NCBI GenBank assembly: GCA_041736305.1
Contig: JBGSTX010000089.1
Span: 1-12,259 of the forward strand
DNA length: 12,259 nt
DNA from: Oligoflexus sp.
GTDB lineage: Bacteria > Bdellovibrionota_B > Oligoflexia > Oligoflexales > Oligoflexaceae
Direction of reading: 5' to 3'
The number at the start of each line of letters is the position of its first letter. Within the stretch, counting starts at the first letter, position 1. Below, piece after piece: positions 1-12,259 of the stretch. The position numbers and the translations under genes are program-made. The notes under the pieces are model-generated. The model did not search any database. It was not told where the DNA came from and saw only the letters and a program-made list of their open reading frames with translations.

Positions 1-2
1 CG

Positions 3-1142
3 CCAGGGGCCTTGCAAGCTGCTGTCGATCTCTCGGCGCGTTATATCAACGATCGTAAATTACCCGACAAAGCGATCGACGTTATCGATGAAGCTGCAGC
101 TGCCATAGCCCTCCGGGGTCCGCAGCATAAGAGCCGGACGATTTCTGCCGAGATGATCCAAGCCGTGGTGGCCAAGATCGCGCGCATTCCCGTGGCGAAG
201 GTTTCGTCCTCGGATCGAGAGTCCCTGCGGGATCTTGAGTCCAGACTTAAAACCAAGGTTTTTGGCCAAGATAAGGCGATTGAAGCCCTGGCTTCCGCGA
301 TCAAGCTTTCGCGCTCCGGTCTCGGCGACGAGGAGCGGCCGATAGGATCTTTCCTCTTTGCGGGCCCGACGGGAGTTGGAAAAACCGAGGTCGCTAAGCA
401 ATTGGCTAAGCTTATGGCGATCGAGATGATCCGCTTCGATATGAGCGAATACATGGAACGACACTCGGTCTCGCGGCTGATCGGAGCGCCTCCCGGTTAC
501 GTAGGCTTCGATCAAGGCGGTATGTTGACCGATGCTATTACCAAGAATCCGCATTCGGTACTTTTGCTCGATGAGATAGAGAAGGCTCATCCGGATATGC
601 AGAATATACTGCTGCAGGTCATGGATCACGGCGCGCTTACCGATAACAACGGCCGCAAAGCTGACTTCCGGAATGTGATCATCATCATGACCACTAACGC
701 CGGGGCCAAAGAGCTGTCACAGCAGTCGATTGGTTTCGATAAGTCGACGCGAGCGAAGATGGAGGGCAATTCACTCTCGAAGGCGATTCGCGATCAGTTC
801 TCGCCAGAGTTTAGAAACCGTTTGAATGGAATCATCAACTTTGGTGCGCTGCCAATCGATGTTGTGAAAATGGTCGCCAAGAAGTTTATCGATGAGCTGA
901 ACGAAAAGCTGGCGAAAAAGAAGGTCAAGCTGGAGTTTAGCGACGAAGCGATTGCCTGGGTCGCCACTAAAGGTTACGATGAAGCCTACGGTGCCCGTCC
1001 TATTCGACGCTTAGTGGATGAAAAGGTTAAGCAGCCGCTTGCTGATGAGCTTCTCTTCGGCGAGATGTCCAAGGGCGGGACGATCATGGTTACCGTGAAA
1101 GAAGATGCTTTAGATTTTGCTTTTGAAAAGAAAGCGATCTGA
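3..1142 (+). CDS. clpA: ATP-dependent Clp protease ATP-binding subunit ClpA, 5'-truncated by the window (end of NBD1 plus NBD2)
   Basis: The frame is open from position 3. It has RYINDRKLPDKAIDVIDEA, Walker A GPTGVGKTE, FDMSEYMERHSVSRLIGAPPGYVG, Walker B LLLDEIEKAH and YGARPIRR. The linker between NBD1 and NBD2 is short, with no ClpB/ClpC coiled-coil middle domain, which points to ClpA. Confidence 0.93.
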   Translation, partial: PGALQAAVDLSARYINDRKLPDKAIDVIDEAAAAIALRGPQHKSRTISAEMIQAVVAKIARIPVAKVSSSDRESLRDLESRLKTKVFGQDKAIEALASAIKLSRSGLGDEERPIGSFLFAGPTGVGKTEVAKQLAKLMAIEMIRFDMSEYMERHSVSRLIGAPPGYVGFDQGGMLTDAITKNPHSVLLLDEIEKAHPDMQNILLQVMDHGALTDNNGRKADFRNVIIIMTTNAGAKELSQQSIGFDKSTRAKMEGNSLSKAIRDQFSPEFRNRLNGIINFGALPIDVVKMVAKKFIDELNEKLAKKKVKLEFSDEAIAWVATKGYDEAYGARPIRRLVDEKVKQPLADELLFGEMSKGGTIMVTVKEDALDFAFEKKAI

Positions 1143-1169
1143 AAGCTGTGATCAGGACTCGGGGCATTC

Positions 1170-1616
1170 ATGAGAAAAGCACGTCAACTTTTGGAAATGA
1201 TCCGCAGCCTGCAAGGCAAGAAGGTCGTTACGCTAAGTATCATGCTCGACGATGAGACTTCCGATTTTGTCTTCGATATAGCGGATGATGGCTATGTTGG
1301 TTATCACCGAGACCACCGCAAGCAACTTCTGACTCTCTTGGAATACGGGATTCAGAACAGCGGGGGTCTCATTATCCGCCAGTTCACTAAGCTCTCCTAC
1401 GAAGCCTCGGCCGCTGACGGCCAGACCATGCGCTTCCCCTACAAGCTAATCTACGCAATTTTTCTAGGCGAAAGCCAATATGTGCCGCTCAGTAAGGAAG
1501 AGACCGAAGAGGTCTGCTGTACCGATGCGCGGACCGGCCATCGGCTTAAAAAGGAAGAAGGCGTCATCTATAGGGGACTCCACCTCCCCCTTCCTGCCGA
1601 TGCTCGGATGTATTAA
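1170..1616 (+). CDS. Hypothetical protein, 148 aa, probably soluble and cytoplasmic
   Basis: ATG-started ORF 27 nt after the clpA stop on the same strand. It fills the gap with no competing long ORF and has ordinary globular composition. No family motif recognised. Confidence 0.75.
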   Translation: MRKARQLLEMIRSLQGKKVVTLSIMLDDETSDFVFDIADDGYVGYHRDHRKQLLTLLEYGIQNSGGLIIRQFTKLSYEASAADGQTMRFPYKLIYAIFLGESQYVPLSKEETEEVCCTDARTGHRLKKEEGVIYRGLHLPLPADARMY

Positions 1617-1623
1617 TCCTTCT

Positions 1624-1636
1624 TAAGTATTTGATT
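1624..1636. promoter_or_regulatory. Putative IHF-binding site in an AT-rich intergenic tract
   Basis: TAAGTATTTGATT matches YAANNNNTTGATW, the reverse complement of the IHF consensus WATCAANNNNTTR. It lies in a conspicuously AT-rich stretch (about 1611-1668) upstream of the exported-protein gene. Confidence 0.4.
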
Positions 1637-1723
1637 TAAATGAATTATTATCTTCTTTCCGAAAAGTAAGGAGCCGACCTTCCAGTCGCGTGCATTTCCG
1701 CCGATCTCATCTGAGCAGCATCA

Positions 1724-2668
1724 GTGAAAAGGCTTGAAATGGTTGTTTTAGTTTCTTACATCTTGGCTTTCTTTACTCTTGCTCTTGCCTGCATGGCCGG
1801 CAGCCCTTCATTAGCGCGGGCGCAGTCGCGTGAGCAGTTGATACAGAACTACATCGATCAGCAGCAGAAGAATCCGCCCTTGTACCAGGCTCCGCCCATC
1901 AACCATCTGGTTCCCAACTTCAACACCATTACCTATGCAGCCGCATTAGATTACCAGCAAGTCGAAATTCTGCCCTCAGACAGTGAGGGCAATGTTCAGA
2001 AATATCTCAACTCAGAAGCAAGCCTTAGTCTCAAAGGCTATACCGTCTCGCCTCATTTAGCGATGTCCCTCAAGCGCGTCGGGCTCGGACTATCTGTGGA
2101 AACGATGCATCGCGAAGCTATCTTCAACAGTAGTTATACAAGTTCAGGCGAGAGCACATATTACTCACAGCTGGCAAGTGTCGATGCGAGTGGCTATGGG
2201 TTCAATATCTCTTTTCTGCCGATTCCCAAGTTCAGTAAAAATATTAAAGTCGCGACCATCTTGGGTACCAAGACATTCAACGCTACTCATCGCAGTGGCT
2301 CTTTCCAGCCCGTGACAGGCAGTGGAAGCCCGAGTCGTCGCTATACTGTGCAAAAACATGAGATTGGCCTCAACGTCGGCCTGCAGCTCCTAAAAGCCTT
2401 TCGCCTTACCCCTTGGGCCAATTATGGGCTAACGGTGCTAAATACCGATAGCGAATCTAATGGCGCCTCCTATGAGAAAGAACTCGAGCTATTTTGGAAG
2501 GAACAACCTGATTTTCGCTATGGAATCAATGCCGGGATCACTCTCGATGGCTTCGAATTGAGCATAGGCGGTATACTCGGCATGCTTGGCAATCTGAATG
2601 GCACCCCGGACTTTATCAAAGACAAATCATTATCGCTGACTCTCTCCTGGGATCAGAAAGGAAGCTGA
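1724..2668 (+). CDS. Putative exported / outer-membrane beta-barrel-like hypothetical protein (start GTG 1724 or ATG 1739)
   Basis: N-terminal signal peptide (MKR, hydrophobic core, ARA|QS cleavage-like site). The mature region is rich in alternating hydrophobic/polar strands with Gly and aromatics: GYTVSPHLAMSL, VGLGLSVE, GYGFNISF, IGLNVGLQL, FRLTPWANYG, YGINAGITL, LSLTLSW. Confidence 0.7.
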   Translation: MKRLEMVVLVSYILAFFTLALACMAGSPSLARAQSREQLIQNYIDQQQKNPPLYQAPPINHLVPNFNTITYAAALDYQQVEILPSDSEGNVQKYLNSEASLSLKGYTVSPHLAMSLKRVGLGLSVETMHREAIFNSSYTSSGESTYYSQLASVDASGYGFNISFLPIPKFSKNIKVATILGTKTFNATHRSGSFQPVTGSGSPSRRYTVQKHEIGLNVGLQLLKAFRLTPWANYGLTVLNTDSESNGASYEKELELFWKEQPDFRYGINAGITLDGFELSIGGILGMLGNLNGTPDFIKDKSLSLTLSWDQKGS

Positions 2669-2711
2669 CGCGCAGCTCCTCTCGTCTCTTCTTCCCCCTG
2701 TCAGGCTCGCC

Positions 2712-3527
2712 TCAGTGACGATAACGAAACTTATGAGGAAAGAGCATATTCAAAGCGAGGGCTCCGACTAAGACCGAAAGCATGATCGGCATAAAAACTG
2801 CTTCTGGAATATGCATGCCCACTAACTTGATCTGCTGATCCCCGAAGGGCAGCGCCTCGATTTCCAGCACGACTTTCAATCCAGCAATGCCGACGAGTAT
2901 GAAAGCTGCAGGGACGAGAACAGGAAATTTAACGATCAGCTTGATGAAGAAGGATGCAGCTACCCGCATCATCAGGATGCCTAGAACTGCACCCGTAATG
3001 AGTACCCACCTTTGATCTGATACGGCGAGCGCGACGGCAATTGAATCGATGGAAAACATTATATCCATCAATTCGACCGCCAGAATGGTTTTCCAAAGGG
3101 TCTTCCAGTCAGCACGCGGGGCCTCTTGCGCTCGCTTTAGAGATTCAGCTCGCATCCGTGCCTCGTGCTCCTGCGCACTTTCACCCTCCTCTGCGGCCGC
3201 ATGCTCCACAGCTTCAGTCTCCTTCTTTTTGAAGAAAAGTTCGCTGGCTGCGATCCAGAGTAAATAGGCGCCCGCTAAAAATTTAATCCAGGCATTTGCC
3301 ATCAGCCAAACGCCAACAAACACGACGGCGATCCGGGAGACGTAGGCACCCCCAATACCCCAGAGGAGAGCTTTCTTTCTATCCTCAGGGTGCTTGAGTC
3401 GATCCGACACCAGAGCAGCTAGGGCTAGGGCATTATCGAAACTGAGGAGGCCCTCGAGAATCGCTAGCTGGAGGACTAAGCCAAAATTCGCTGGGGTCAG
3501 AGTTTCCACAAGAGGAGTAGGATCCAC
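2712..3527 (-). CDS. TerC family (YkoY/Alx-like) integral membrane protein, possibly Mn2+/metal homeostasis
   Basis: TerC motifs LEGLLSFDNAL, ALLWGIGGAYVSR, GAYLLW and VELMDIMFSIDSI, plus about 7 hydrophobic segments. I place the start at GTG 3527 because a GAGGA Shine-Dalgarno lies just upstream (cagcGAGGAaaccGTG). The ORF-track start is 3569. Confidence 0.9.
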   Translation of the reverse strand: MDPTPLVETLTPANFGLVLQLAILEGLLSFDNALALAALVSDRLKHPEDRKKALLWGIGGAYVSRIAVVFVGVWLMANAWIKFLAGAYLLWIAASELFFKKKETEAVEHAAAEEGESAQEHEARMRAESLKRAQEAPRADWKTLWKTILAVELMDIMFSIDSIAVALAVSDQRWVLITGAVLGILMMRVAASFFIKLIVKFPVLVPAAFILVGIAGLKVVLEIEALPFGDQQIKLVGMHIPEAVFMPIMLSVLVGALALNMLFPHKFRYRH

Positions 3528-3583
3528 GGTTTCCTCGCTGGGCTCGTGTAATGATGACGCGACAGGCACTTACATGGCCTTAT

Positions 3584-3612
3584 AATCTAGCGTCAAAACA
3601 TTGGGCGCGCAA
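3584..3612 (-). promoter_or_regulatory. Putative sigma70-type promoter for the TerC-family gene
   Basis: The minus strand reads TTGCGC (3612-3607), then 17 nt, then TAGATT (3589-3584). It sits in the divergent terC/trpS intergenic region. Confidence 0.45.
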
Positions 3613-3760
3613 ATGGCTTCCATGCAAGGCAAGATTTTTCCGCGCGAGCCGCAGCAAACGATCTCTGCACGCGAAGGCTGGCGCAAAATCGCCAGAATCA
3701 GTATACCAAGGTGAATGAGGCGATAACTCGAGGCCCCCAGAGAAAAAGGAAGCGGATTCC

Positions 3761-4771
3761 ATGGCGACTCTCACTCACAAGAACGTAATTCTTTCCGGCA
3801 TTCAACCTACGCACCGGCTTACGCTCGGAAACTATCTCGGGGCCATCAAGAACTGGGTGAAGATTCAAGACGCCTACAACTGCTACTTCATGGCTGTCGA
3901 CCAACACGCGATCACGTTGCGGCAAGATCCTGCCCTCTTACGTGAAAACACCTGGTTTGGGATCGCCAGCTACATTGCGGCCGGCATCGATCCTGAGCGC
4001 TGTTCGATCTTTGTGCAGTCACAAATCCCTGAGCACGCCCAGCTTGCCTGGATCCTCAATTGCTATGCCTATATGGGTGAGGTCAATCGGATGACCCAGT
4101 TTAAAGACAAAGGGACCAAAGCTGGAGCCAACATCCCTGTTGGCCTTTTTACCTACCCTCTGCTCATGGCCGCCGATATCTTGCTCTACGATGCTAAATT
4201 GGTTCCGGTTGGTGAAGATCAAAAGCAGCACGTCGAGCTCACCAGGGACATCGCGCAGCGCGTGAATGCCCTCTATGGTGACGATACCTTCGTCGTTCCT
4301 GAGGTTTTTATTCCTGAGGTGGGTGCTCGCGTTATGGATCTCCTGAACCCTACGGCAAAGATGAGCAAGAGCGCTAGCAATGAAAACGGATCGATTTTCC
4401 TCGGTGACTCGCCCGACGTGATCGAAAAGAAATTCAAACGAGCGGTCACCGATTCGGGGCAGGGCATTGAATTTGATCCCGATAACAAGCCTGGGGTCAG
4501 CAATCTCTTGAGCATCCAGGCAGCGATTACGGGTGAAACTCTGAGTCAGGTCGTGGCCCGCTATGAGGGCAAGCAGTACGGTCACCTGAAAGTCGAAACT
4601 GCGGCGCATGTCATTCAGGAGTTAGCACCGATACAAAAGCGAACGCAGGAACTCCTCGCCGATCGGGGTGAGCTGGCCCGCATCATTCGGACTTCGGCAG
4701 CCAAAGCTCGTGCCCATGCGGAGAAGACCCTCGAACGGGTCTATGAGCGCATCGGCTTCGTCAAAGTTTGA
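3761..4771 (+). CDS. trpS: Tryptophan--tRNA ligase
   Basis: SGIQPT..LTLGNYLG (HIGH-equivalent), RMTQFKDK, GLFTYPLLMAADILLY, VPVGEDQKQHVELTRD, KMSKS, KRAVTDS, KPGVSNL and YGHLK. AAGGAAG lies upstream of the ATG. Confidence 0.97.
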   Translation: MATLTHKNVILSGIQPTHRLTLGNYLGAIKNWVKIQDAYNCYFMAVDQHAITLRQDPALLRENTWFGIASYIAAGIDPERCSIFVQSQIPEHAQLAWILNCYAYMGEVNRMTQFKDKGTKAGANIPVGLFTYPLLMAADILLYDAKLVPVGEDQKQHVELTRDIAQRVNALYGDDTFVVPEVFIPEVGARVMDLLNPTAKMSKSASNENGSIFLGDSPDVIEKKFKRAVTDSGQGIEFDPDNKPGVSNLLSIQAAITGETLSQVVARYEGKQYGHLKVETAAHVIQELAPIQKRTQELLADRGELARIIRTSAAKARAHAEKTLERVYERIGFVKV

Positions 4772-4794
4772 AAAGCTAGTTTGGAGAGAGTCTC

Positions 4795-6930
4795 TTGCAT
4801 ATTCAGGACTATGCTCGTCAAATTCTCGAGGGTCGAGAGCTGAGCGATAAGCTCTTGCCTCCTCCTCGTGAGATCGATTGTTCGGAGAGGGCCGCATGGG
4901 AGGGATTCATTGCCGAGCCCGGACGTCCGTCTTCGCTTGCTTTTGGGAAGAAAGGCACCCGTCGCAGTTTTCCTACGGTAAAGGAGCTTGAGCAAGATGA
5001 GGCCCGCGGAATTGTTCTGCACTTCTTCGCTAACCACGAACTCCTTGCACTCGAGATCATGGCACTTGCTCTGCTGAAATTCCCTGCGGCTCCTCAAGGC
5101 TTCAGGCGCGGTCTGCTAGAGACCATGCGCGAAGAGCAGGAGCATTTGCTTGCTTACCAAACCCGCATGATGGAGCTCGGCGTTGCCCTGGGAGATGTGC
5201 CGGTGAATCGCTTCTTCTGGGATTGTCTCAAAGAAATGCGCAGTCCCTTGGACTATGTTCTTGGGATGAGTCTTACCTTTGAGCAAGCCAATCTCGATTT
5301 TTCGCGTCATTATCAGGAACTGTTTGCGAAGATCGGTGACAGCGTGACGGCCAATATCCTCGAAAAAGTTTATGAAGACGAAATCGGACATGTAAAGCAC
5401 GGGGTAGTCTGGTTTGATCGCTGGAAAGACCCCGCCGCATCTCAATGGCAAGCGTATGCGTCTCAGCTGACCCTACCCCTCAGCCCAGCTCGCGCTAAGG
5501 GGGTGGTCTTTGATCGCACAGCGCGTCGGAGGGCAAATTTGAGCGAAGAATTTTGTGATCAACTCGAGGTCTTTGCAGGAACCAAAGGTCGTCCACCGGC
5601 GGTATTCTATTACAACGCAGACTGCGAGATCGAACTCTCGCGCGAAGCCCCAGGTTATACTTTGCAGACCGGCACCAAGAAGGTCATGGCCGAGCTGATG
5701 AACTGCCTGATGTTTGCGGCCAAGGGTGGCGATGTAGTCCTGACAACGCGGATACCCTCAGCCAGCTATCTCAGTTCTATGCGAAAGCTAGGTTTTGAAC
5801 TGCCGGAATTTCAGGAGCTGCCGGCAGGAGCAGACGCTTGGAGCAAGTTGCGTGAAAGCCGCCGCTGGGATAGTTTTCATCCCTGGGGCTGGACCCCGCG
5901 CAGTCTCGAAATGGGGCGGAATTTTTCGCCGTTGCATGCACCTCCTCTTGATGTTGACGAGCACAACTTCTGGAAGAGCCCTTGGATGCAGCTCTTCCGC
6001 AAGTCAGCTCTGCCTGAACTAAGGCGGCGGCTTCGAGAGGACATAGCCACGGCTCCGACCGAGCTTTGGGGGCCCGTTGAGGCTGATGGAAACTTGGCGA
6101 GCGATCTTACCGATGTACTCGTCGGGATCAGTGATATTCATGCAACGTTCGGCACGCCCGCCGTGATCAAGAGTCCCTATGGATTTGCAGGATCTGGAAT
6201 GCTGCGCGCTTACCCAGGCCAAAATCTCAACGAAGCCCAAATCGGCTGGATTGAACGCCAGCTCGAACTCTACGGTGCGGTGTTGATCGAACCTTGGCTC
6301 CGACGCGTTGCTGATTTATCGGTCGTCTGGTCAGGTGATAGCCCTCTTCTGAGCAGCTTCGTCTTCTTTACCAACGCCAAAGGCCAATACAAAGGACACT
6401 CTTTACAGCAGGTGAGTCTCGCGCTCGAGCCCGAGCAGCGGGCTTTTATGTTTGGAACTAAAGATGGCCCTATCTCAGCTTACGAGCAGCTCCTGGCTGT
6501 TGCCGGACTCGTAAAAGACAAGTTGGCGGCTCTTTCCTATCGCTATGCGGCAGGCATCGATACCATGATTTATGAGTGGCAGGGCAAATGGCACCTCAGG
6601 ATCCTTGGTGAGGTAAATTGTCGTATGACTATGGGGCATGTTGCGCGCGGATTGCGAAAACGAATCAGTCCTGGCGTCCCAAGTCTCTGGCAGTCGATTA
6701 CAGTTCTGGAGGCGCAAGGTAAAGGCTGGCCCACTCTGCGGGATATGGCCCATGAGCTAAGTTCGGGCCATCCTCCCTTACTCAAGCATGGCACCATCGA
6801 TAGCGGCATCGTTTTTACAGGCGATCCGGCCCAGAATTCTTATGTGCTGGGGGTACTCGCTGTAGGTGAAGCGGCACTCAAGGCTTGCTCAGGACTCGGT
6901 GAGCTCGGCGCGACGACGAGGCCATGCTGA
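4795..6930 (+). CDS. DUF455-type ferritin-like (di-iron) domain fused to a C-terminal ATP-grasp-like domain, 711 aa
   Basis: The N-terminal ~260 aa have LHFFANHELLALE, REEQEH, TFEQANLD and EDEIGHVKHG, the E...ExxH...E...ExxH four-helix di-iron pattern typical of DUF455. The C-terminal part has PWGW, VIKSPYGFAGSG, VLIEPWL, AGIDTMIY and GEVNCRMTMG, which are ATP-grasp-type motifs in the canonical order. TTG start preceded by GGAGAG. Confidence 0.8.
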   Translation: MHIQDYARQILEGRELSDKLLPPPREIDCSERAAWEGFIAEPGRPSSLAFGKKGTRRSFPTVKELEQDEARGIVLHFFANHELLALEIMALALLKFPAAPQGFRRGLLETMREEQEHLLAYQTRMMELGVALGDVPVNRFFWDCLKEMRSPLDYVLGMSLTFEQANLDFSRHYQELFAKIGDSVTANILEKVYEDEIGHVKHGVVWFDRWKDPAASQWQAYASQLTLPLSPARAKGVVFDRTARRRANLSEEFCDQLEVFAGTKGRPPAVFYYNADCEIELSREAPGYTLQTGTKKVMAELMNCLMFAAKGGDVVLTTRIPSASYLSSMRKLGFELPEFQELPAGADAWSKLRESRRWDSFHPWGWTPRSLEMGRNFSPLHAPPLDVDEHNFWKSPWMQLFRKSALPELRRRLREDIATAPTELWGPVEADGNLASDLTDVLVGISDIHATFGTPAVIKSPYGFAGSGMLRAYPGQNLNEAQIGWIERQLELYGAVLIEPWLRRVADLSVVWSGDSPLLSSFVFFTNAKGQYKGHSLQQVSLALEPEQRAFMFGTKDGPISAYEQLLAVAGLVKDKLAALSYRYAAGIDTMIYEWQGKWHLRILGEVNCRMTMGHVARGLRKRISPGVPSLWQSITVLEAQGKGWPTLRDMAHELSSGHPPLLKHGTIDSGIVFTGDPAQNSYVLGVLAVGEAALKACSGLGELGATTRPC

Positions 6931-7005
6931 GAGGATTTTTCTTGCCTCGACCTACCTTCAGCTGCAGACTGAGTCCTACGATCAACGTTTGAAGGAGAGA
7001 TCCCA

Positions 7006-8448
7006 GTGGTGCGTCGCCGCCAAGTCGCTGATGAGTATCCAAGCACTGAGCATGCGGAAGACTGTTTGCTCCTCGTTTGCCAGGAGGCGCAAAGCAAAGC
7101 CAGCCCCTGGGTAGAGCAGCTGCGACGGGACTCGATCCCGACTCTAGGACGGGATATTCACTATGCCCGTCTTTCATTTGGATTCAAAGATCCTCGCCGG
7201 CCTTATGCCTTGCTCGAGTGGCAAAGCAGCGGCCGCCACAGTCTCGAGCGGCGCTGGGTGATCTCGCATTTCTTTCGCTCGCTGCGACAGCAGTTCCGAG
7301 TCAAGCGCTTCTGCGCCTTCGTCTATGGAACGGCTGCAGACCTCGTACTGGCGGAAGATGCCTACCTTTCGCAGATGAAGCCCAACGATGATGGTAACGA
7401 CTGGGACAGCTTTGAAATCTTGCAGGTGGCCGCGGCTTATGATCCCTACGCCGCGATTCGTTGGGAAGGCATGCTCGGCTATCGGCGATGGATCAATGAA
7501 AATCCGGACGAACTCACCTCACTTGAGATCGGCCGGCGCCTCAAGGAATTCGCAGAGCAGCATCAGTGCAGCTTTGAAGAAATGGGCATCGATGCCTTGA
7601 AGAAAGAGGGCATGAACCTGCTCCTAGCCGTCGGGCAAGCGTCTGAGCGATCGCCCTCCCGCTGCTACATTCTAGGCTCCCACCTCGATCGCGGCGGAGC
7701 TCCTCTCATGCTGCTCGGTAAAGGTATCACCTTCGATACGGGTGGCATCAATCTCAAAGCCTTTGAAAGCTTTGTCAACGCGATGAAAAACGATATGGGT
7801 GGCGCTGCCCTGATGAGCCAACTCTTTATGGCCTTGGTCAAAAGCGGTTTTGATAAGCCTTTGCTGCTCGTGATTCCCTGCTGTGAAAATCTGATTGACG
7901 CCAAGGCCATGAAACCTGGGACCGTAGTGCAGAGCCATAAGGGGCTGAAGGTATTTATCGAGCATACGGATGCCGAAGGGCGCCTGATTCTTGCTGATGC
8001 CCTCAGCTATGCTTCAAAGCGCTTCAAACCCGCTGCTACGCTGAGCGCTGCTACGCTGACGACCGCTTCTTTACGGCAGTTCTCAGGGTATTTCACGGCT
8101 GTTCACTTCGCTTCGCCAGCCGTCCAAACGGCTTTGCACGAGGCTGGCATGAAGTGGGGCGAACGTTTCAGTTGCTGGGAAGATTTCCTGCCTTTCAAGG
8201 CAGCCAACTCCACCAAGGCAGCTGACCTCACAAATATGGGCCGCCTCCCCTCGCATGCCAGTATCGGGACGGGATCTAACGTCGCTGCGCACTTTCTCAA
8301 AGAATTTTCCACAGGCCCTCTTATTCACTTCGATATCTTTGCCACTTGCTGGAATTGGAGCGGGGACTATCCGGGTTCGGCTTTCGGTGCAACCGGAGCA
8401 CCTTTTAATTCGCTCTTTGAGCTCTTGCGTAACACTCAGATCACTTGA
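7006..8448 (+). CDS. M17 family metallopeptidase (leucyl aminopeptidase-like) with a divergent N-terminal region
   Basis: Catalytic-domain motifs LGKGITFDTGGINLK, MKNDMGGAA, CENLI, KPG, EHTDAEGRLILADAL, ATLT and HFDI. AAGGAG Shine-Dalgarno just upstream of GTG 7006. Confidence 0.9.
   Translation: MVRRRQVADEYPSTEHAEDCLLLVCQEAQSKASPWVEQLRRDSIPTLGRDIHYARLSFGFKDPRRPYALLEWQSSGRHSLERRWVISHFFRSLRQQFRVKRFCAFVYGTAADLVLAEDAYLSQMKPNDDGNDWDSFEILQVAAAYDPYAAIRWEGMLGYRRWINENPDELTSLEIGRRLKEFAEQHQCSFEEMGIDALKKEGMNLLLAVGQASERSPSRCYILGSHLDRGGAPLMLLGKGITFDTGGINLKAFESFVNAMKNDMGGAALMSQLFMALVKSGFDKPLLLVIPCCENLIDAKAMKPGTVVQSHKGLKVFIEHTDAEGRLILADALSYASKRFKPAATLSAATLTTASLRQFSGYFTAVHFASPAVQTALHEAGMKWGERFSCWEDFLPFKAANSTKAADLTNMGRLPSHASIGTGSNVAAHFLKEFSTGPLIHFDIFATCWNWSGDYPGSAFGATGAPFNSLFELLRNTQIT
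8031..8059 (+). repeat. In-frame 15-nt-period tandem repeat, CGCTGCTACGCTGA x2, within the M17 gene
   Basis: Identical 14-mers at 8031-8044 and 8046-8059, encoding AATL-S-AATL-T. Confidence 0.8.
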
Positions 8449-8479
8449 ACTCGATAGGGATGATGCTCGAACGAGGTCA

Positions 8480-9502
8480 ATGATGGTGCAGGACGAGACT
8501 ATGTTTTCGCGTTTCAGGCGGCTGCATGAACGTCGGTTTGGCCAGCTGTGGCTGAAAGCGATCGCTCTGGGATTGGGACTGTTGATCTGCTTCGAACTTA
8601 TGTTCTTCATTTGGATCTGGCCTGACTGGGATGCTTTGCGCCAAGGTAAGGTCCCTCCATCGGCGCTCATAGAAGAATACGAAAAAGCCAGGCGAGATAA
8701 TTCAGAGCTAGCTCCTCTTAAGTGGTCGCCTATCGTGAAAGCCTTTCCCAAATCGATCAAGAAAGTCTTTGTTCTGGCCGAGGATTCGCGCTTCTATGAG
8801 CATGATGGAATCGATTTGCCAGCGATTCTGGAGGCTGTCGCATACAACTATCGGCACGGGAAAGTCTTGCGTGGAGCCAGTACGATATCCCAACAAACCG
8901 CTAAAAATATGTTTCTGAGTCTCTCGAGAAACCCTCTTAGAAAGTGGCATGAACTCCTGATGACTTTTTTCCTAGAAACCCATCTGACTAAAGAGCAGAT
9001 CCTGCACATCTATCTTAACGTTGCTGAGTTTGGGCCAGGGGTTTTCGGGCTTGAAGCGGCCGCCAAGCACTATTATAAGAGCAGTGCGCAGGGGCTCAGC
9101 GTTTCACAGGCAGTCGAGTTGGCAGCAGCTTTGCCCAGCCCGAAAAAACATAACCCGAAGCAGCGTACTACCGCCTATCAGAAGCGAGTTCAACGTATTG
9201 GACAGACCATGCAAGTGGTCGAACGAGTGGCGGCTGAACCTTTGCAGAGCAGCGCTGTACGCCAGGAGCTTGAGAAGAATCTCGACGAACTGCGACGGGA
9301 ACTCAAAGAAAATCCGATCGAGCAGCTGCCTGCTGGAGGCGAATCTCCAACTCTGAAGGAACCGACTGCCCAGGAATTGCCTCCCGATCCAGGTAATAGC
9401 CAGGGCGAGGTCGAAGGTGCAGCAGAGTCGCGCGATGCAGAAGACCTACCAGCTGCAGAGCCAGGAGTGCCTCCAGCAGAAGAAGCGGAAGTGCCCGACT
9501 AA
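8480..9502 (+). CDS. mtgA: Monofunctional biosynthetic peptidoglycan transglycosylase (GT51, MtgA-like) with an acidic C-terminal tail
   Basis: A single N-terminal TM helix, then GT51 motifs EDSRFYEHDGID, GASTISQQTAKN, RKWHE, KEQILHIYLN and GLEAAAKHYY, with no transpeptidase domain. The ORF-track start at 8255 overlaps the M17 gene. ATG 8480/8483 (after GAGG) or ATG 8501 is more plausible. Confidence 0.88.
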   Translation: MMVQDETMFSRFRRLHERRFGQLWLKAIALGLGLLICFELMFFIWIWPDWDALRQGKVPPSALIEEYEKARRDNSELAPLKWSPIVKAFPKSIKKVFVLAEDSRFYEHDGIDLPAILEAVAYNYRHGKVLRGASTISQQTAKNMFLSLSRNPLRKWHELLMTFFLETHLTKEQILHIYLNVAEFGPGVFGLEAAAKHYYKSSAQGLSVSQAVELAAALPSPKKHNPKQRTTAYQKRVQRIGQTMQVVERVAAEPLQSSAVRQELEKNLDELRRELKENPIEQLPAGGESPTLKEPTAQELPPDPGNSQGEVEGAAESRDAEDLPAAEPGVPPAEEAEVPD

Positions 9503-9520
9503 TTTGCAAAGAGGAAGCTC

Positions 9521-10723
9521 ATGACAAATACCTCGCATCCCTACTGGCTCGACGAGAAACTGGAGCTAGGCAAGCTGGGAAAACCCCCGGAGGGGCAGAT
9601 ATGCATCATCGGTTCTGGCCTTTCTGGAGTCAGTGCTGCTTACTGGCTTCTAGAAAAAGGTTACGATGATCTGGTCATCGTCGATTATGAGCCTGAGCAA
9701 GCGGCGACCTTTCGCAATTGCGGTCATATACTCTATGGAACCGTAGAATCTATGCTGGCTCTGGTTGCTCTCCACGGTGAAGAAACAGCTCGCCGCCTTT
9801 GGGCGCTCTCGATCGATATCTGCCACGAGGTGCGGGATACCATCGCTCGCCTTGACCTGGCCGCGGACTATAAGCAGGACGGCTACCTCGTCATTGCTAT
9901 CGATGAGTCGGAGGATAGAGAAATTCGACAGTCGATCGACTATCTGCAGCGCTTCGGTTTTTCGAGCGAGTATGTGGCGCGCGAGAAACTCGAAGCGCTC
10001 GGCTTCCGCCATACCTTCGGCGGGCGTTTCGAGCCGGGATCGGGGCAAGCTCATCCCGTAAAGTTCCGCAATGGCCTTCTAAGGCACTGTCTGCAAAGAG
10101 GCGTCACATACGTAGGAGGCGTCAGGGTGAAGGCTCTGTCGGAAGTTCAGGATAAAGTGCAAATCGAGACGGAGGCCTTTGGCAGCATAGCTTATGATGC
10201 AGCTATCATCGCCACCAATGCCTATTCGCCTTTGCTATCTGATTTCTTTAGAAAACATCGCCTGATTGAACCCTTCCGTGGCCAGATCATTACTTCGAAA
10301 CCTTTGCGGCATCCTCCACCGATCACCTATCCCCACAGTTTTGATCACGGCTACGAATACGCTCTCATGACCAGCGACCAGAGATTGATGATAGGCGGCT
10401 GGCGACAGCATACACCCCAGGGAGAAAAAGGGACCTACGATCTGCAGCCGAATCCCATGGTCGAGCGAGGCCTCGAAGAGTTTGTGAGCAGGCATTATGC
10501 TTTGCAAGAAAAAATCGAATGGGAATACTCATGGGCGGGTATCATGGCAGCTTCGAAAACTGGTTTTCCTTTTATCGGGCCGACTGATAGCCCTCGCATA
10601 TTCACGGTCGCAGGGTATACGGGCCATGGATTTTCCTGGGCCCACGGCAGTGCGAAGATACTGGCTGACATCATCAACGGCGACCCTATTCCATCGATAG
10701 TTGCCGAACGCTGTCGCCCTTAA
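9521..10723 (+). CDS. FAD-dependent oxidoreductase, DAO/DadA/PuuB-like family
   Basis: N-terminal PYW, Rossmann IIGSGLSG, AATFRNCG (variant of GASGRNGG), HPVK, IIATNAY, YSWAGIM, PFIG and AGYTGHG. GAGGAAG RBS. Confidence 0.88.
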   Translation: MTNTSHPYWLDEKLELGKLGKPPEGQICIIGSGLSGVSAAYWLLEKGYDDLVIVDYEPEQAATFRNCGHILYGTVESMLALVALHGEETARRLWALSIDICHEVRDTIARLDLAADYKQDGYLVIAIDESEDREIRQSIDYLQRFGFSSEYVAREKLEALGFRHTFGGRFEPGSGQAHPVKFRNGLLRHCLQRGVTYVGGVRVKALSEVQDKVQIETEAFGSIAYDAAIIATNAYSPLLSDFFRKHRLIEPFRGQIITSKPLRHPPPITYPHSFDHGYEYALMTSDQRLMIGGWRQHTPQGEKGTYDLQPNPMVERGLEEFVSRHYALQEKIEWEYSWAGIMAASKTGFPFIGPTDSPRIFTVAGYTGHGFSWAHGSAKILADIINGDPIPSIVAERCRP

Positions 10724-10729
10724 AATTTT

Positions 10730-12259
10730 TTATGATGCGGTTTTCATTCCTTCGAGAATGATACCCTTTTGCTGGAGCGCAGCTAAGATTCCGTCCTTAT
10801 CTACTGCTTTGATGTAAGCGTCTTTGGCTTCGATCAGGCCCTTATTTACGAGGTTCATCAGTGCGTCGTTCAGCATGATGTTGCCCTTGGCCTTTTGGGT
10901 CTGCATTTGATTCTGTATCATGTGGGTATTACCTTCGCGAATAAGGCTCGCGACGGCCCGATCGACGATCAGAACTTCCTGGGCTGCGACTCGGCCTCCG
11001 CCTTTTTTCTTGATCAAGGTTTGCGCAACGACTCCCCGCAGAGATTCCGCCAGCATAACCCGAACCTGCTCCTGCTGTTCAGCTGAAAATTGGTCGATGA
11101 TCCTATCGATCGTTGAAATCGCTGTATTGGTGTGAAGAGTTCCGAATACCAAGTGACCTGTCTCTGCAGTTTCGATCGCAATTTCTACGGTCTCGAGATC
11201 GCGAAGCTCACCGATTAAGATGATGTCGGGATCCTCACGAAGGGCGGCACGGAGCGCGCGGGAAAATGATTGGGTATGGCGATGTACTTCGCGCTGATTA
11301 ATAAGGCAGCGCTTCTGCTTGTGAACGAATTCGATTGGGTCTTCGATGGTAATGTTATGGTCGCTGCGAGTGTCGTTGACCAGATCGATCATGGAAGCAA
11401 GGGTGGTCGACTTTCCCGATCCAGTTGGACCGGTGACAATGACAAGCCCTTTGGATAATTCGCAGAGCTTGCGGATAGCGGGGCTGAGACCAAGGTCATC
11501 TGCCGAGAGGATTTTCTCGGGAATCTGCCGCAGTACAGCGCCGACACCGAGACGATCTCTAAACATGTTGACACGAAAGCGCGCTACACCGCTGAGTTCG
11601 TAGGCAAAATCTGTATCACTGCTCGCGGCGAACTCTTGGCGATTCCGTGGCGGCATGATGGGCAGGAGGTAGGAGCGCATTTCGTCTTCTGTCACTCTCT
11701 CTTCGCTCAAGCGGATGATCTCGCCGTCGATGCGCAAACTGGGAGGCTCTCTCATGGTGAGATGAAGATCAGACGCCCCACGCTTGACCATCTTTTCGAG
11801 TAGAGAATCAATAGGCCGAGGGCCGCTCATATCGAGAACATCGCCGGCTTGATTAGGTCCAAAAGCGATGATGCTTTCCTCTTTAGGGGAAGTAATCACC
11901 GTTTCCATATTAAGAGAACTTTCGGTCACCGAAGGCATGGCGTGGGTGCCGAGACCTGTTGCTGTCAGGGTGGTTTGTTGAAAGTGATAGTTGTCTGTCT
12001 CAGTATACTCCTCAACCGCGGCCGTAAAGGGAAGCTGTTCTACGGTTTGAGTTTCCACTTTTACTTCTGCCTCTGCTTCTGCCTCTGCTTCTTTTGCTCC
12101 ATCTACTTGTGCTGCTAAATCGGGAAGCGTCGAAGATTTCCCTGGGGTATAAAGGACAGTCGGTATATCGATCGATTCTGATGAAGGCTTTGCAAGCGGG
12201 ATTTCGGCTCTGTTAGGAAGGTGCGACGGCTTAAATTGCGTGTCATCTTCCACTTCAAG
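10730..12259 (-). CDS. pilT: Type IV pilus retraction ATPase, PilT family, with a long N-terminal extension; probably 5'-truncated by the window
   Basis: ASDLHL, RIDGEI, RFRVNMFR, Walker A GPTGSGKSTT, Asp box TIEDPIE, ALREDPDIILIGELRD, His box ETGHLVFGTLHT, and VASLIRE (AIRNLIRE-like). The frame stays open to the right edge of the window. Confidence 0.9.
   Translation of the reverse strand, partial: LEVEDDTQFKPSHLPNRAEIPLAKPSSESIDIPTVLYTPGKSSTLPDLAAQVDGAKEAEAEAEAEVKVETQTVEQLPFTAAVEEYTETDNYHFQQTTLTATGLGTHAMPSVTESSLNMETVITSPKEESIIAFGPNQAGDVLDMSGPRPIDSLLEKMVKRGASDLHLTMREPPSLRIDGEIIRLSEERVTEDEMRSYLLPIMPPRNRQEFAASSDTDFAYELSGVARFRVNMFRDRLGVGAVLRQIPEKILSADDLGLSPAIRKLCELSKGLVIVTGPTGSGKSTTLASMIDLVNDTRSDHNITIEDPIEFVHKQKRCLINQREVHRHTQSFSRALRAALREDPDIILIGELRDLETVEIAIETAETGHLVFGTLHTNTAISTIDRIIDQFSAEQQEQVRVMLAESLRGVVAQTLIKKKGGGRVAAQEVLIVDRAVASLIREGNTHMIQNQMQTQKAKGNIMLNDALMNLVNKGLIEAKDAYIKAVDKDGILAALQQKGIILEGMKTAS
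12064..12092. repeat. 12-nt tandem repeat (CTTCTGCCTCTG x2 plus a partial unit; hexamer subunits YTCTGC) encoding an (EA)n tract in the PilT extension
   Basis: Read directly: cttctgcctctg cttctgcctctg cttct. On the minus strand this region translates as KEAEAEAEAEVK. Confidence 0.85.

Follow-up and report, generated by a model that had tools for sequence, protein, structure and literature searches.

The window analysed here, a 12,259-nucleotide stretch from Oligoflexus sp. (Bdellovibrionota_B; assembly GCA_041736305.1, contig JBGSTX010000089.1, positions 1 to 12,259), carries on its forward strand at 4795..6930 a gene for a protein of 711 amino acids, in which a ferritin-like di-iron domain of the DUF455 family is fused to an ATP-grasp ligase. 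The gene starts with TTG, a start residue common to the aligned homologues, and GGAG, a probable ribosome-binding site read from the sequence, lies 8 nucleotides 5′ of it on the same strand (4783..4786). All the motifs quoted for this open reading frame (ORF) by a first-pass annotation, which saw only the letters, were found in its translation. The product is a real, conserved two-domain enzyme made of parts of known kinds, and the joint task of the two domains is most likely to attach a chemical group to tRNA beside its anticodon.

The DUF455 domain occupies residues 1-262 (4795..5580, forward strand) and was delimited through Pfam, alignment and model. Pfam DUF455 (PF04305) matches residues 40-254 with 151 bits, the cut-off being 34.3 (E 5e-44), as well as 50 of 50 members of alignment A9, and the only other Pfam match of the query is a weak one to Ferritin. 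In the AlphaFold2 model of the whole protein (predicted local distance difference test, 94.1; predicted template modelling score, 0.90), helices 68-95, 101-127, 151-179 and 183-210 form a four-helix bundle bearing E / ExxH / E / ExxH, and residues 62-224 match ferritin-like bundles at Z 12-15, the best being 8W1D (Z 14.8, root-mean-square deviation (rmsd) 1.8, 140 residues aligned). The predicted iron ligands E82, E114, H117, E163, E196 and H199 are each present in 114 of the 114 full-length sequences aligned, namely the query and 113 of the 120 homologues listed. E87 and D168 are also invariant; E82, not E87, is taken as the first ligand because its spacing to E114 is 32 residues versus 31 in the tRNA hydroxylase MiaE. 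The domain keeps several basic residues that appear dispensable for iron (K19, R44, R71, R124, R233, K235 and R244), as an RNA-binding enzyme might. The family match, the invariant predicted ligands and the modelled bundle bear out the ferritin-like di-iron domain that the first-pass annotation had placed at residues ~1-260.

The ATP-grasp ligase occupies residues 266-705 (5590..6909, forward strand), as defined by model and alignment, with K403, K459, E499, Y532, D589, E606, N608 and R610 as key residues. No Pfam or NCBIfam family matches residues 265-711, so automated annotation would miss these C-terminal ~450 residues, as had been foreseen; most of the 120 listed homologues are annotated merely as DUF455. 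Although a single-sequence search of the PDB with the query gave no match, a fold search with the model placed the domain in the PGM1/LdmS/BesA clade. Its best whole-domain matches (Z 23-26, 14-15% identity) are PGM1 (3WVQ; Z 25.7, rmsd 3.4, 375 residues aligned), a Streptomyces peptide ligase (8YND; Z 24.2) and BesA (8YI6; Z 23.3), followed by LdmS (7R8P; Z 21.7); the clade is matched over 332-375 residues, and the next clade, PurK, reaches Z 17.4. A broad profile of the ligase family also matches the clade, at E 2e-9 to 2e-4 (LdmS, E 2.2e-9). K403, K459, E499, D589, E606, N608 and R610, corresponding to ATP lysines, Mg ligands and a carboxylate-binding arginine, are each found in 114 of 114 sequences, and the K, D, N and R are invariant also in a broad 44-row ligase alignment. 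The ATP-grasp ligase proposed earlier for this region is thus upheld by a modelled pre-ATP-grasp plus ATP-grasp fold and by conservation of its Lys, Asp and Glu-x-Asn residues. Gut Bacteroidales carry this ligase family, for which Pfam has no model, in large numbers (4127 clusters).

The Staphylococcus aureus L-Asp-L-Met ligase LdmS (PDB 7R8P) is ~12% identical to the fusion ligase; its Asp288, Asp301, Asn303, Arg305 and Tyr252 correspond to D589, E606, N608, R610 and Y532, and the Arg305Ala exchange kills the enzyme (PMC9486568). Among the residues used there to filter the LdmS family (Arg47, Tyr252, Asn255, Arg305, Asn307 and Ser309; PMC9486568), the fusion keeps the Tyr and Arg305, Arg47 is not aligned, and Asn255, Asn307 and Ser309 of the Asp pocket are replaced by H535, T612 and G614, which leaves the fusion outside that filter. 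The partner of LdmS is the amidohydrolase HmrA, whereas that of the fusion ligase is the di-iron domain. A separate ATP-grasp family without a Pfam match lies directly 5′ of an M20 amidohydrolase gene, like hmrA-ldmS, at loci L364 (4967-6787) and L233 (2255-3400). M20-adjacent ATP-grasps from two genomes (G298 and G320) were considered as members of the fusion ligase family and rejected; they score 42-55 bits and, as chosen outgroup, fall outside on a branch with a support of 100, and are therefore treated as a sister family. Two other ligase loci were noted in passing: a planctomycete stand-alone ligase between ferrochelatase and a HemN/HemW-like gene (L163:4153-7519; a ferrochelatase-like neighbour recurs in L113), and a divergent PGM1-like ligase of the spirochaete G616 within a probably biosynthetic cluster of radical S-adenosylmethionine (SAM) and unannotated genes (L208:2640-11858).

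The fusion is widespread. Out of 8000 candidates scored in a homologue search, 1709 proteins were retained; of the 120 listed, most are 35-72% identical to the query over 91-100% of its length, and the closest named ones among them are from Oligoflexus. No phage match was found for the DUF455 domain. In its own phylum the fusion occurs in 94 of 131 genomes (61 of the 83 high-quality ones), nearly always as a single copy, as in its own genome, and it is found in at least five other phyla. A genome scan yielded at least 553 relatives among the 600 pattern matches listed, and the 80 kept carry lineage labels such as Verrucomicrobiota, Latescibacterota, Planctomycetota, SAR324 and Leptonemataceae; in a further phylum sample of 201 genomes, all five strong ligase matches are fused, and this sample supplied no case for testing what replaces DUF455. 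No neighbour is conserved across lineages at 81 fusion loci, where the commonest neighbour family occurs 14 times and is lineage-bound, nor is any exporter, precursor gene or cluster conserved there. The 80 Prevotella-type ligase loci likewise lack a conserved neighbourhood (commonest, an AAA_14 ATPase at 39 of 80). The absence of conserved neighbours, the single copy per genome and the wide spread over phyla make a housekeeping pattern rather than that of a biosynthetic cluster. PGM1 and BesA act in natural-product clusters; the fusion gene, unlike them, is solitary and, in several families, near-core, and a conserved multi-gene cluster such as those in which di-iron oxidase and ATP-grasp meet in Bes and Mbo was not found around it.

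The two halves are coupled also where they are not fused. Among 161 genomes of Planctomycetota, 47 have the ligase and 53 DUF455; both are present in 45 and neither in 106. Where both occur, they are fused in 7 genomes, adjacent (within 1 kb) in 29 and apart in 9. Since related genomes such as those of Planctomycetota are not independent, no weight of a p-value is placed on this co-occurrence. In spirochaetes the ligase profile matches 22 of 141 genomes, and DUF455 was found in three of five tested among the 21 with a non-fused ligase, once adjacent and twice unlinked. The fusion had been offered at first as a Rosetta-stone clue to DUF455, with a survey of fused and split homologues as a check, and the occurrence of the halves as fused, adjacent, and unlinked but co-occurring genes agrees with it. 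The ligase almost never occurs without DUF455 or the prenyltransferase MiaA2 described below, whereas each of these two occurs without the ligase, which fits makers of an intermediate.

MiaA adds an isopentenyl group to adenosine 37 (A37) of tRNA, and where the ligase lacks DUF455 a second MiaA-type prenyltransferase, here called MiaA2, is almost always present. Two IPPT matches were obtained in 3 of the 161 Planctomycetota; those of G419 are one gene split over two contigs, and the other two genomes, G485 and G498, the only ones with two distinct MiaA genes, are exactly the two ligase genomes without DUF455. None of the 20 lowest-scoring single IPPT copies among the matches listed is MiaA2 (96-175 versus 350-470 bits), 8 further low-scoring single copies lying outside that check, and a second MiaA is lacking in all 106 genomes that have neither DUF455 nor the ligase. 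A MiaA2 profile was then built and the outcome was predicted beforehand for 121 genomes of Latescibacterota. With two weak ligase matches (E about 5e-6) left out, 45 strong ones were obtained, 40 of them in frames of at least 706 residues, the length from which fusion is inferred. Two genomes (G713 and G733) hold broken fusions with DUF455, ordinary MiaA and no MiaA2. Three others (G693, G714 and G750) have the ligase, no DUF455, and MiaA2, scoring 351-380 bits with its profile versus 168-199 for ordinary MiaA. These are exactly the 3 of 121 genomes with MiaA2, and the 74 without a ligase match have none. The ligase and MiaA2, with no DUF455 match, are also found in a spirochaete (G618) and in a Prevotella record comprising one replicon only (W01). 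In a ligase tree of 63 rows made with a quick method, the ligase-only rows nest inside DUF455-linked clades in several separate places, so that DUF455 was swapped for MiaA2 about four times independently, which we regard as a fair count.

MiaA2 forms one clade (support 100/100), and keeps the full length of MiaA with its catalytic and tRNA-binding residues. In two spirochaetes (G588, locus L408; G600, locus L405), one with a genome of 1.1 Mb, it is the only IPPT match and may replace ordinary MiaA outright. Because of these retained residues and these two genomes, MiaA2 probably works on tRNA. It has GLEY for AIGY, with Glu in 11 of 11 aligned MiaA2 sequences, one residue from the position of Asp173 in the adenylate isopentenyltransferase Tzs, as located by motif rather than by structure, and carries Phe or Leu in place of Tzs His214. 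In Tzs, Asp173 and His214 recognise the hydroxyl of 4-hydroxy-3-methylbut-2-enyl diphosphate (HMBPP), Asp173 being crucial for HMBPP use, and weak HMBPP transfer is shown by a Nostoc tRNA enzyme (PMC8234997). Tzs and Tmr are a precedent for HMBPP transfer that skips O2-dependent hydroxylation (PMC8234997), and the Glu of MiaA2 may be the counterpart of the acidic residue close to the hydroxyl of their donor; they act on adenosine monophosphate, however, whereas MiaA2 keeps a tRNA-binding architecture. The presence of IspG was rejected as a discriminator; it is found in all 21 genomes with two MiaA genes or MiaA2 that were checked first, but in the background as well (134 of 141). At three spirochaete loci (L202:5075-7374, L203:5242-7447 and L205:5336-7589) MiaA2 lies directly behind a gene for a PUA and SAM methyltransferase protein, RlmI-like by domain content, and has on its other side a gene that is TatD-like by eye; this is possibly an RNA-modification operon.

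For the substrate, donor, product and order of steps we infer the following scheme. If a di-iron O2 enzyme and a prenyltransferase paralogue both feed the ligase, their simplest common supply would be a hydroxylated isopentenyl group on A37. First, the DUF455 di-iron site would use O2 to hydroxylate a terminal methyl of the A37 isopentenyl group, the reaction of MiaE carried out by another family. Second, the ATP-grasp domain would activate a free carboxylate, probably that of an amino acid, as an acyl-phosphate, with R610 and D589/E606/N608 serving as in LdmS, and would join it to the new allylic hydroxyl, giving an ester or other adduct; the conserved R610 argues for carboxylate activation. 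This ligase step is the weakest part of the scheme. Among ATP-grasp enzymes, VanA and the graspetide ligases are known to form esters. In lineages unable to use O2, or not using it, DUF455 would be dropped and the ligase kept with MiaA2, which would transfer the ready-hydroxylated donor HMBPP without O2. The Oligoflexus genome has one ordinary MiaA and eight tRNA genes with A36-A37-A38, and one tblastn query found no IspG match in its 93% complete assembly; it would therefore need the O2 route. Hydroxylation followed by acylation at A37, as a housekeeping step on tRNAs reading UNN codons, falls a little short of an even chance in our judgement, while a pathway involving a MiaA-type prenylated adenosine, whatever the later chemistry, is probable. 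The first-pass annotation had proposed an O2-dependent oxidation coupled to an amide ligation on a peptide, amino acid, protein tail or tRNA. The coupling of the halves stands; the replacement of DUF455 by a second MiaA-type prenyltransferase narrows the substrates towards tRNA A37, and the amide gives way, in the scheme preferred here, to an ester or other adduct.

Several observations weigh against this scheme, and two of them concern MiaE, the di-iron monooxygenase of tRNA ms2i6A37 (2-methylthio-N6-isopentenyladenosine 37), for which DUF455 is proposed to share the substrate. Both have a ferritin-like bundle carrying the ligand pattern E / ExxH / E / ExxH, formed in MiaE by E38, E69, H72, E122, E151 and H154 (PMC7515727). 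In an hhalign comparison the four motifs lie in register over 126 columns, but the alignment is non-significant (probability 0.1%, E 0.47). MiaE is another Pfam family (PF06175) without a sequence-family match in the query, and is absent among the best 50 matches of the whole-model fold search, which does not exclude a likeness to it. No ligase partner for MiaE is described in the accessible part of PMC7515727. Moreover, 45 of the 131 genomes of the phylum, the present one among them, have both MiaE and the fusion, so the product of the fusion must differ from that of MiaE or be redundant. With the fusion only in 49, MiaE only in 17 and neither in 20, the two distributions are independent, ruling out that DUF455 simply substitutes for MiaE; action after MiaE is ruled out by family f19, in which 31 of 33 genomes carry the fusion and none carries MiaE. 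The isomer produced by MiaE is disputed, cis versus trans (PMC8234997), and a different product geometry is possible for DUF455.

Further counter-evidence lies in the comparative data. The swaps are few; in a MiaA tree of 28 rows, the MiaA2 sequences of G485 and G498 are sisters, hence one lineage, and the three from Latescibacterota fall together in one clade. Most of the sampled genomes are incomplete assemblies. Anaerobic life may be behind both changes, the disappearance of an O2 enzyme and the acquisition of MiaA2, a confound that is reduced but not removed. Only one (G618) of the 12 spirochaete genomes with confirmed MiaA2 has a ligase match. At 80 Prevotella-type loci, miaA is missing from the 5 kb on either side of the ligase, and MiaA2 is never adjacent to the ligase in the genomes examined, the two being on different contigs in G485, G498, G618, G693, G714 and G750. 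DUF455 occurs without the ligase in six strong and two weak cases in Planctomycetota, and may do so in rhizobia, Neisseria and Ralstonia, whose DUF455 records were not screened for the ligase, while the spirochaete G616 has a weak ligase match (102 bits, long branch) and neither DUF455 nor MiaA2. Finally, all the characterised structural neighbours of the ligase make amides of amino acids or peptides.

This last point would be accommodated if the same three players carried out another chemistry, an explanation we consider unlikely even though it agrees with all the co-occurrence evidence. DUF455 might oxidise the prenyl methyl to a carboxylate, which the ligase would join to an amine as an amide; the ligase might activate the allylic hydroxyl for substitution; or the acceptor might be a free adenine nucleotide in place of tRNA, giving a cytokinin-like metabolite. 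R610 matches the carboxylate-binding Arg305 of LdmS, the known products of the clade are amides, and a product unlike that of MiaE would explain the coexistence of the two. MiaA2 would then need a carboxylated donor or an O2-free oxidase, however, and no such oxidase was found beside MiaA2 or the ligase; moreover, MiaA2 is as long as MiaA and retains the residues that bind tRNA.

Doubtful, too, is an enzyme that oxidises and ligates a small molecule (an amino acid, a dipeptide or a protein tail), like the pairs of the Bes and mangotoxin pathways, with the MiaA2 link as a side effect of anaerobic life. PGM1, BesA and LdmS, the nearest folds, would suit such an enzyme, as would the lack of miaA adjacency, and 1447 heme-oxygenase-like di-iron oxidases are reported near an ATP-grasp ligase (PMC13185094). 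Yet there is no conserved cluster, exporter or precursor gene around the fusion, the LdmS pocket residues Asn255, Asn307 and Ser309 are replaced, and in two phyla MiaA2 is confined to the genomes that have only the ligase (2 of 161 and 3 of 121), being absent from the 74 ligase-free Latescibacterota just as a second MiaA is from the 106 Planctomycetota with neither half, though anaerobic life remains a confound here. An assembly artefact or a chance fusion of unrelated or dead domains, for which the split and unlinked forms might speak and which the first-pass annotation had proposed to check by asking whether homologues are always two unlinked genes, is refuted by conservation: besides 94 of the 131 genomes of its phylum, the fusion is known from at least five further phyla, its active sites are invariant, and the halves co-occur even when unlinked.

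Upstream of the fusion gene lies trpS (PF00579; 3761..4771, forward strand), which does not belong to the system and is beside the fusion in 7 of the 81 loci, all Oligoflexus-like, and downstream an M17 aminopeptidase gene (PF00883; 7006..8448, forward strand), with a homologue at 5 of the 81 loci; both reflect local synteny only. The aminopeptidase scores far under all 13 NCBIfam cut-offs, and its N-terminal 150 residues have no match. A PilT-like ATPase with an acidic, low-complexity N-terminal extension of 145 residues is encoded at 10730-12253, and two ORFs behind clpA (1170-1616 and 1724-2668) have no family match, the product of the latter appearing secreted and rich in beta-strands. Promoter and terminator scans gave hits at chance level.

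The first-pass annotation knew of no function assigned to DUF455, and a literature search, outside which subscription journals and supplements lay, likewise found none for DUF455, the fusion or MiaA2; in the accessible part of a 2026 compendium of bacterial RNA modifications, the terms DUF455, ATP-grasp and HMBPP do not occur. Joint use of DUF455 and the ligase on tRNA would thus be new. Taken to its full extent, and rather less likely to be right than the scheme for A37 itself, the proposal is that DUF455 is a second family of tRNA isopentenyl hydroxylases, that MiaA2 is an O2-free bypass using HMBPP, and that the ligase adds an acyl group to yield an undescribed A37 nucleoside, present in bacteria as different as Oligoflexia, Leptospira-like spirochaetes and gut Prevotella. 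If this is true, stand-alone DUF455 would be a candidate for the enzyme behind the tRNA zeatin of bacteria that lack MiaE, a gap stated in PMC8234997. It would also be a candidate for the plant tRNA cis-hydroxylase behind cis-zeatin, which is called unidentified in PMC12066119, and PMC10582711 lists a DUF455 gene from potato; this plant link is the most speculative part, because HMBPP would give the trans isomer. The proposal predicts a new tRNA modification together with a pair of aerobic and anaerobic routes to the same intermediate, and would give a testable function to three orphan families: DUF455, the ligase family without a Pfam model, and the second MiaA of anaerobes.

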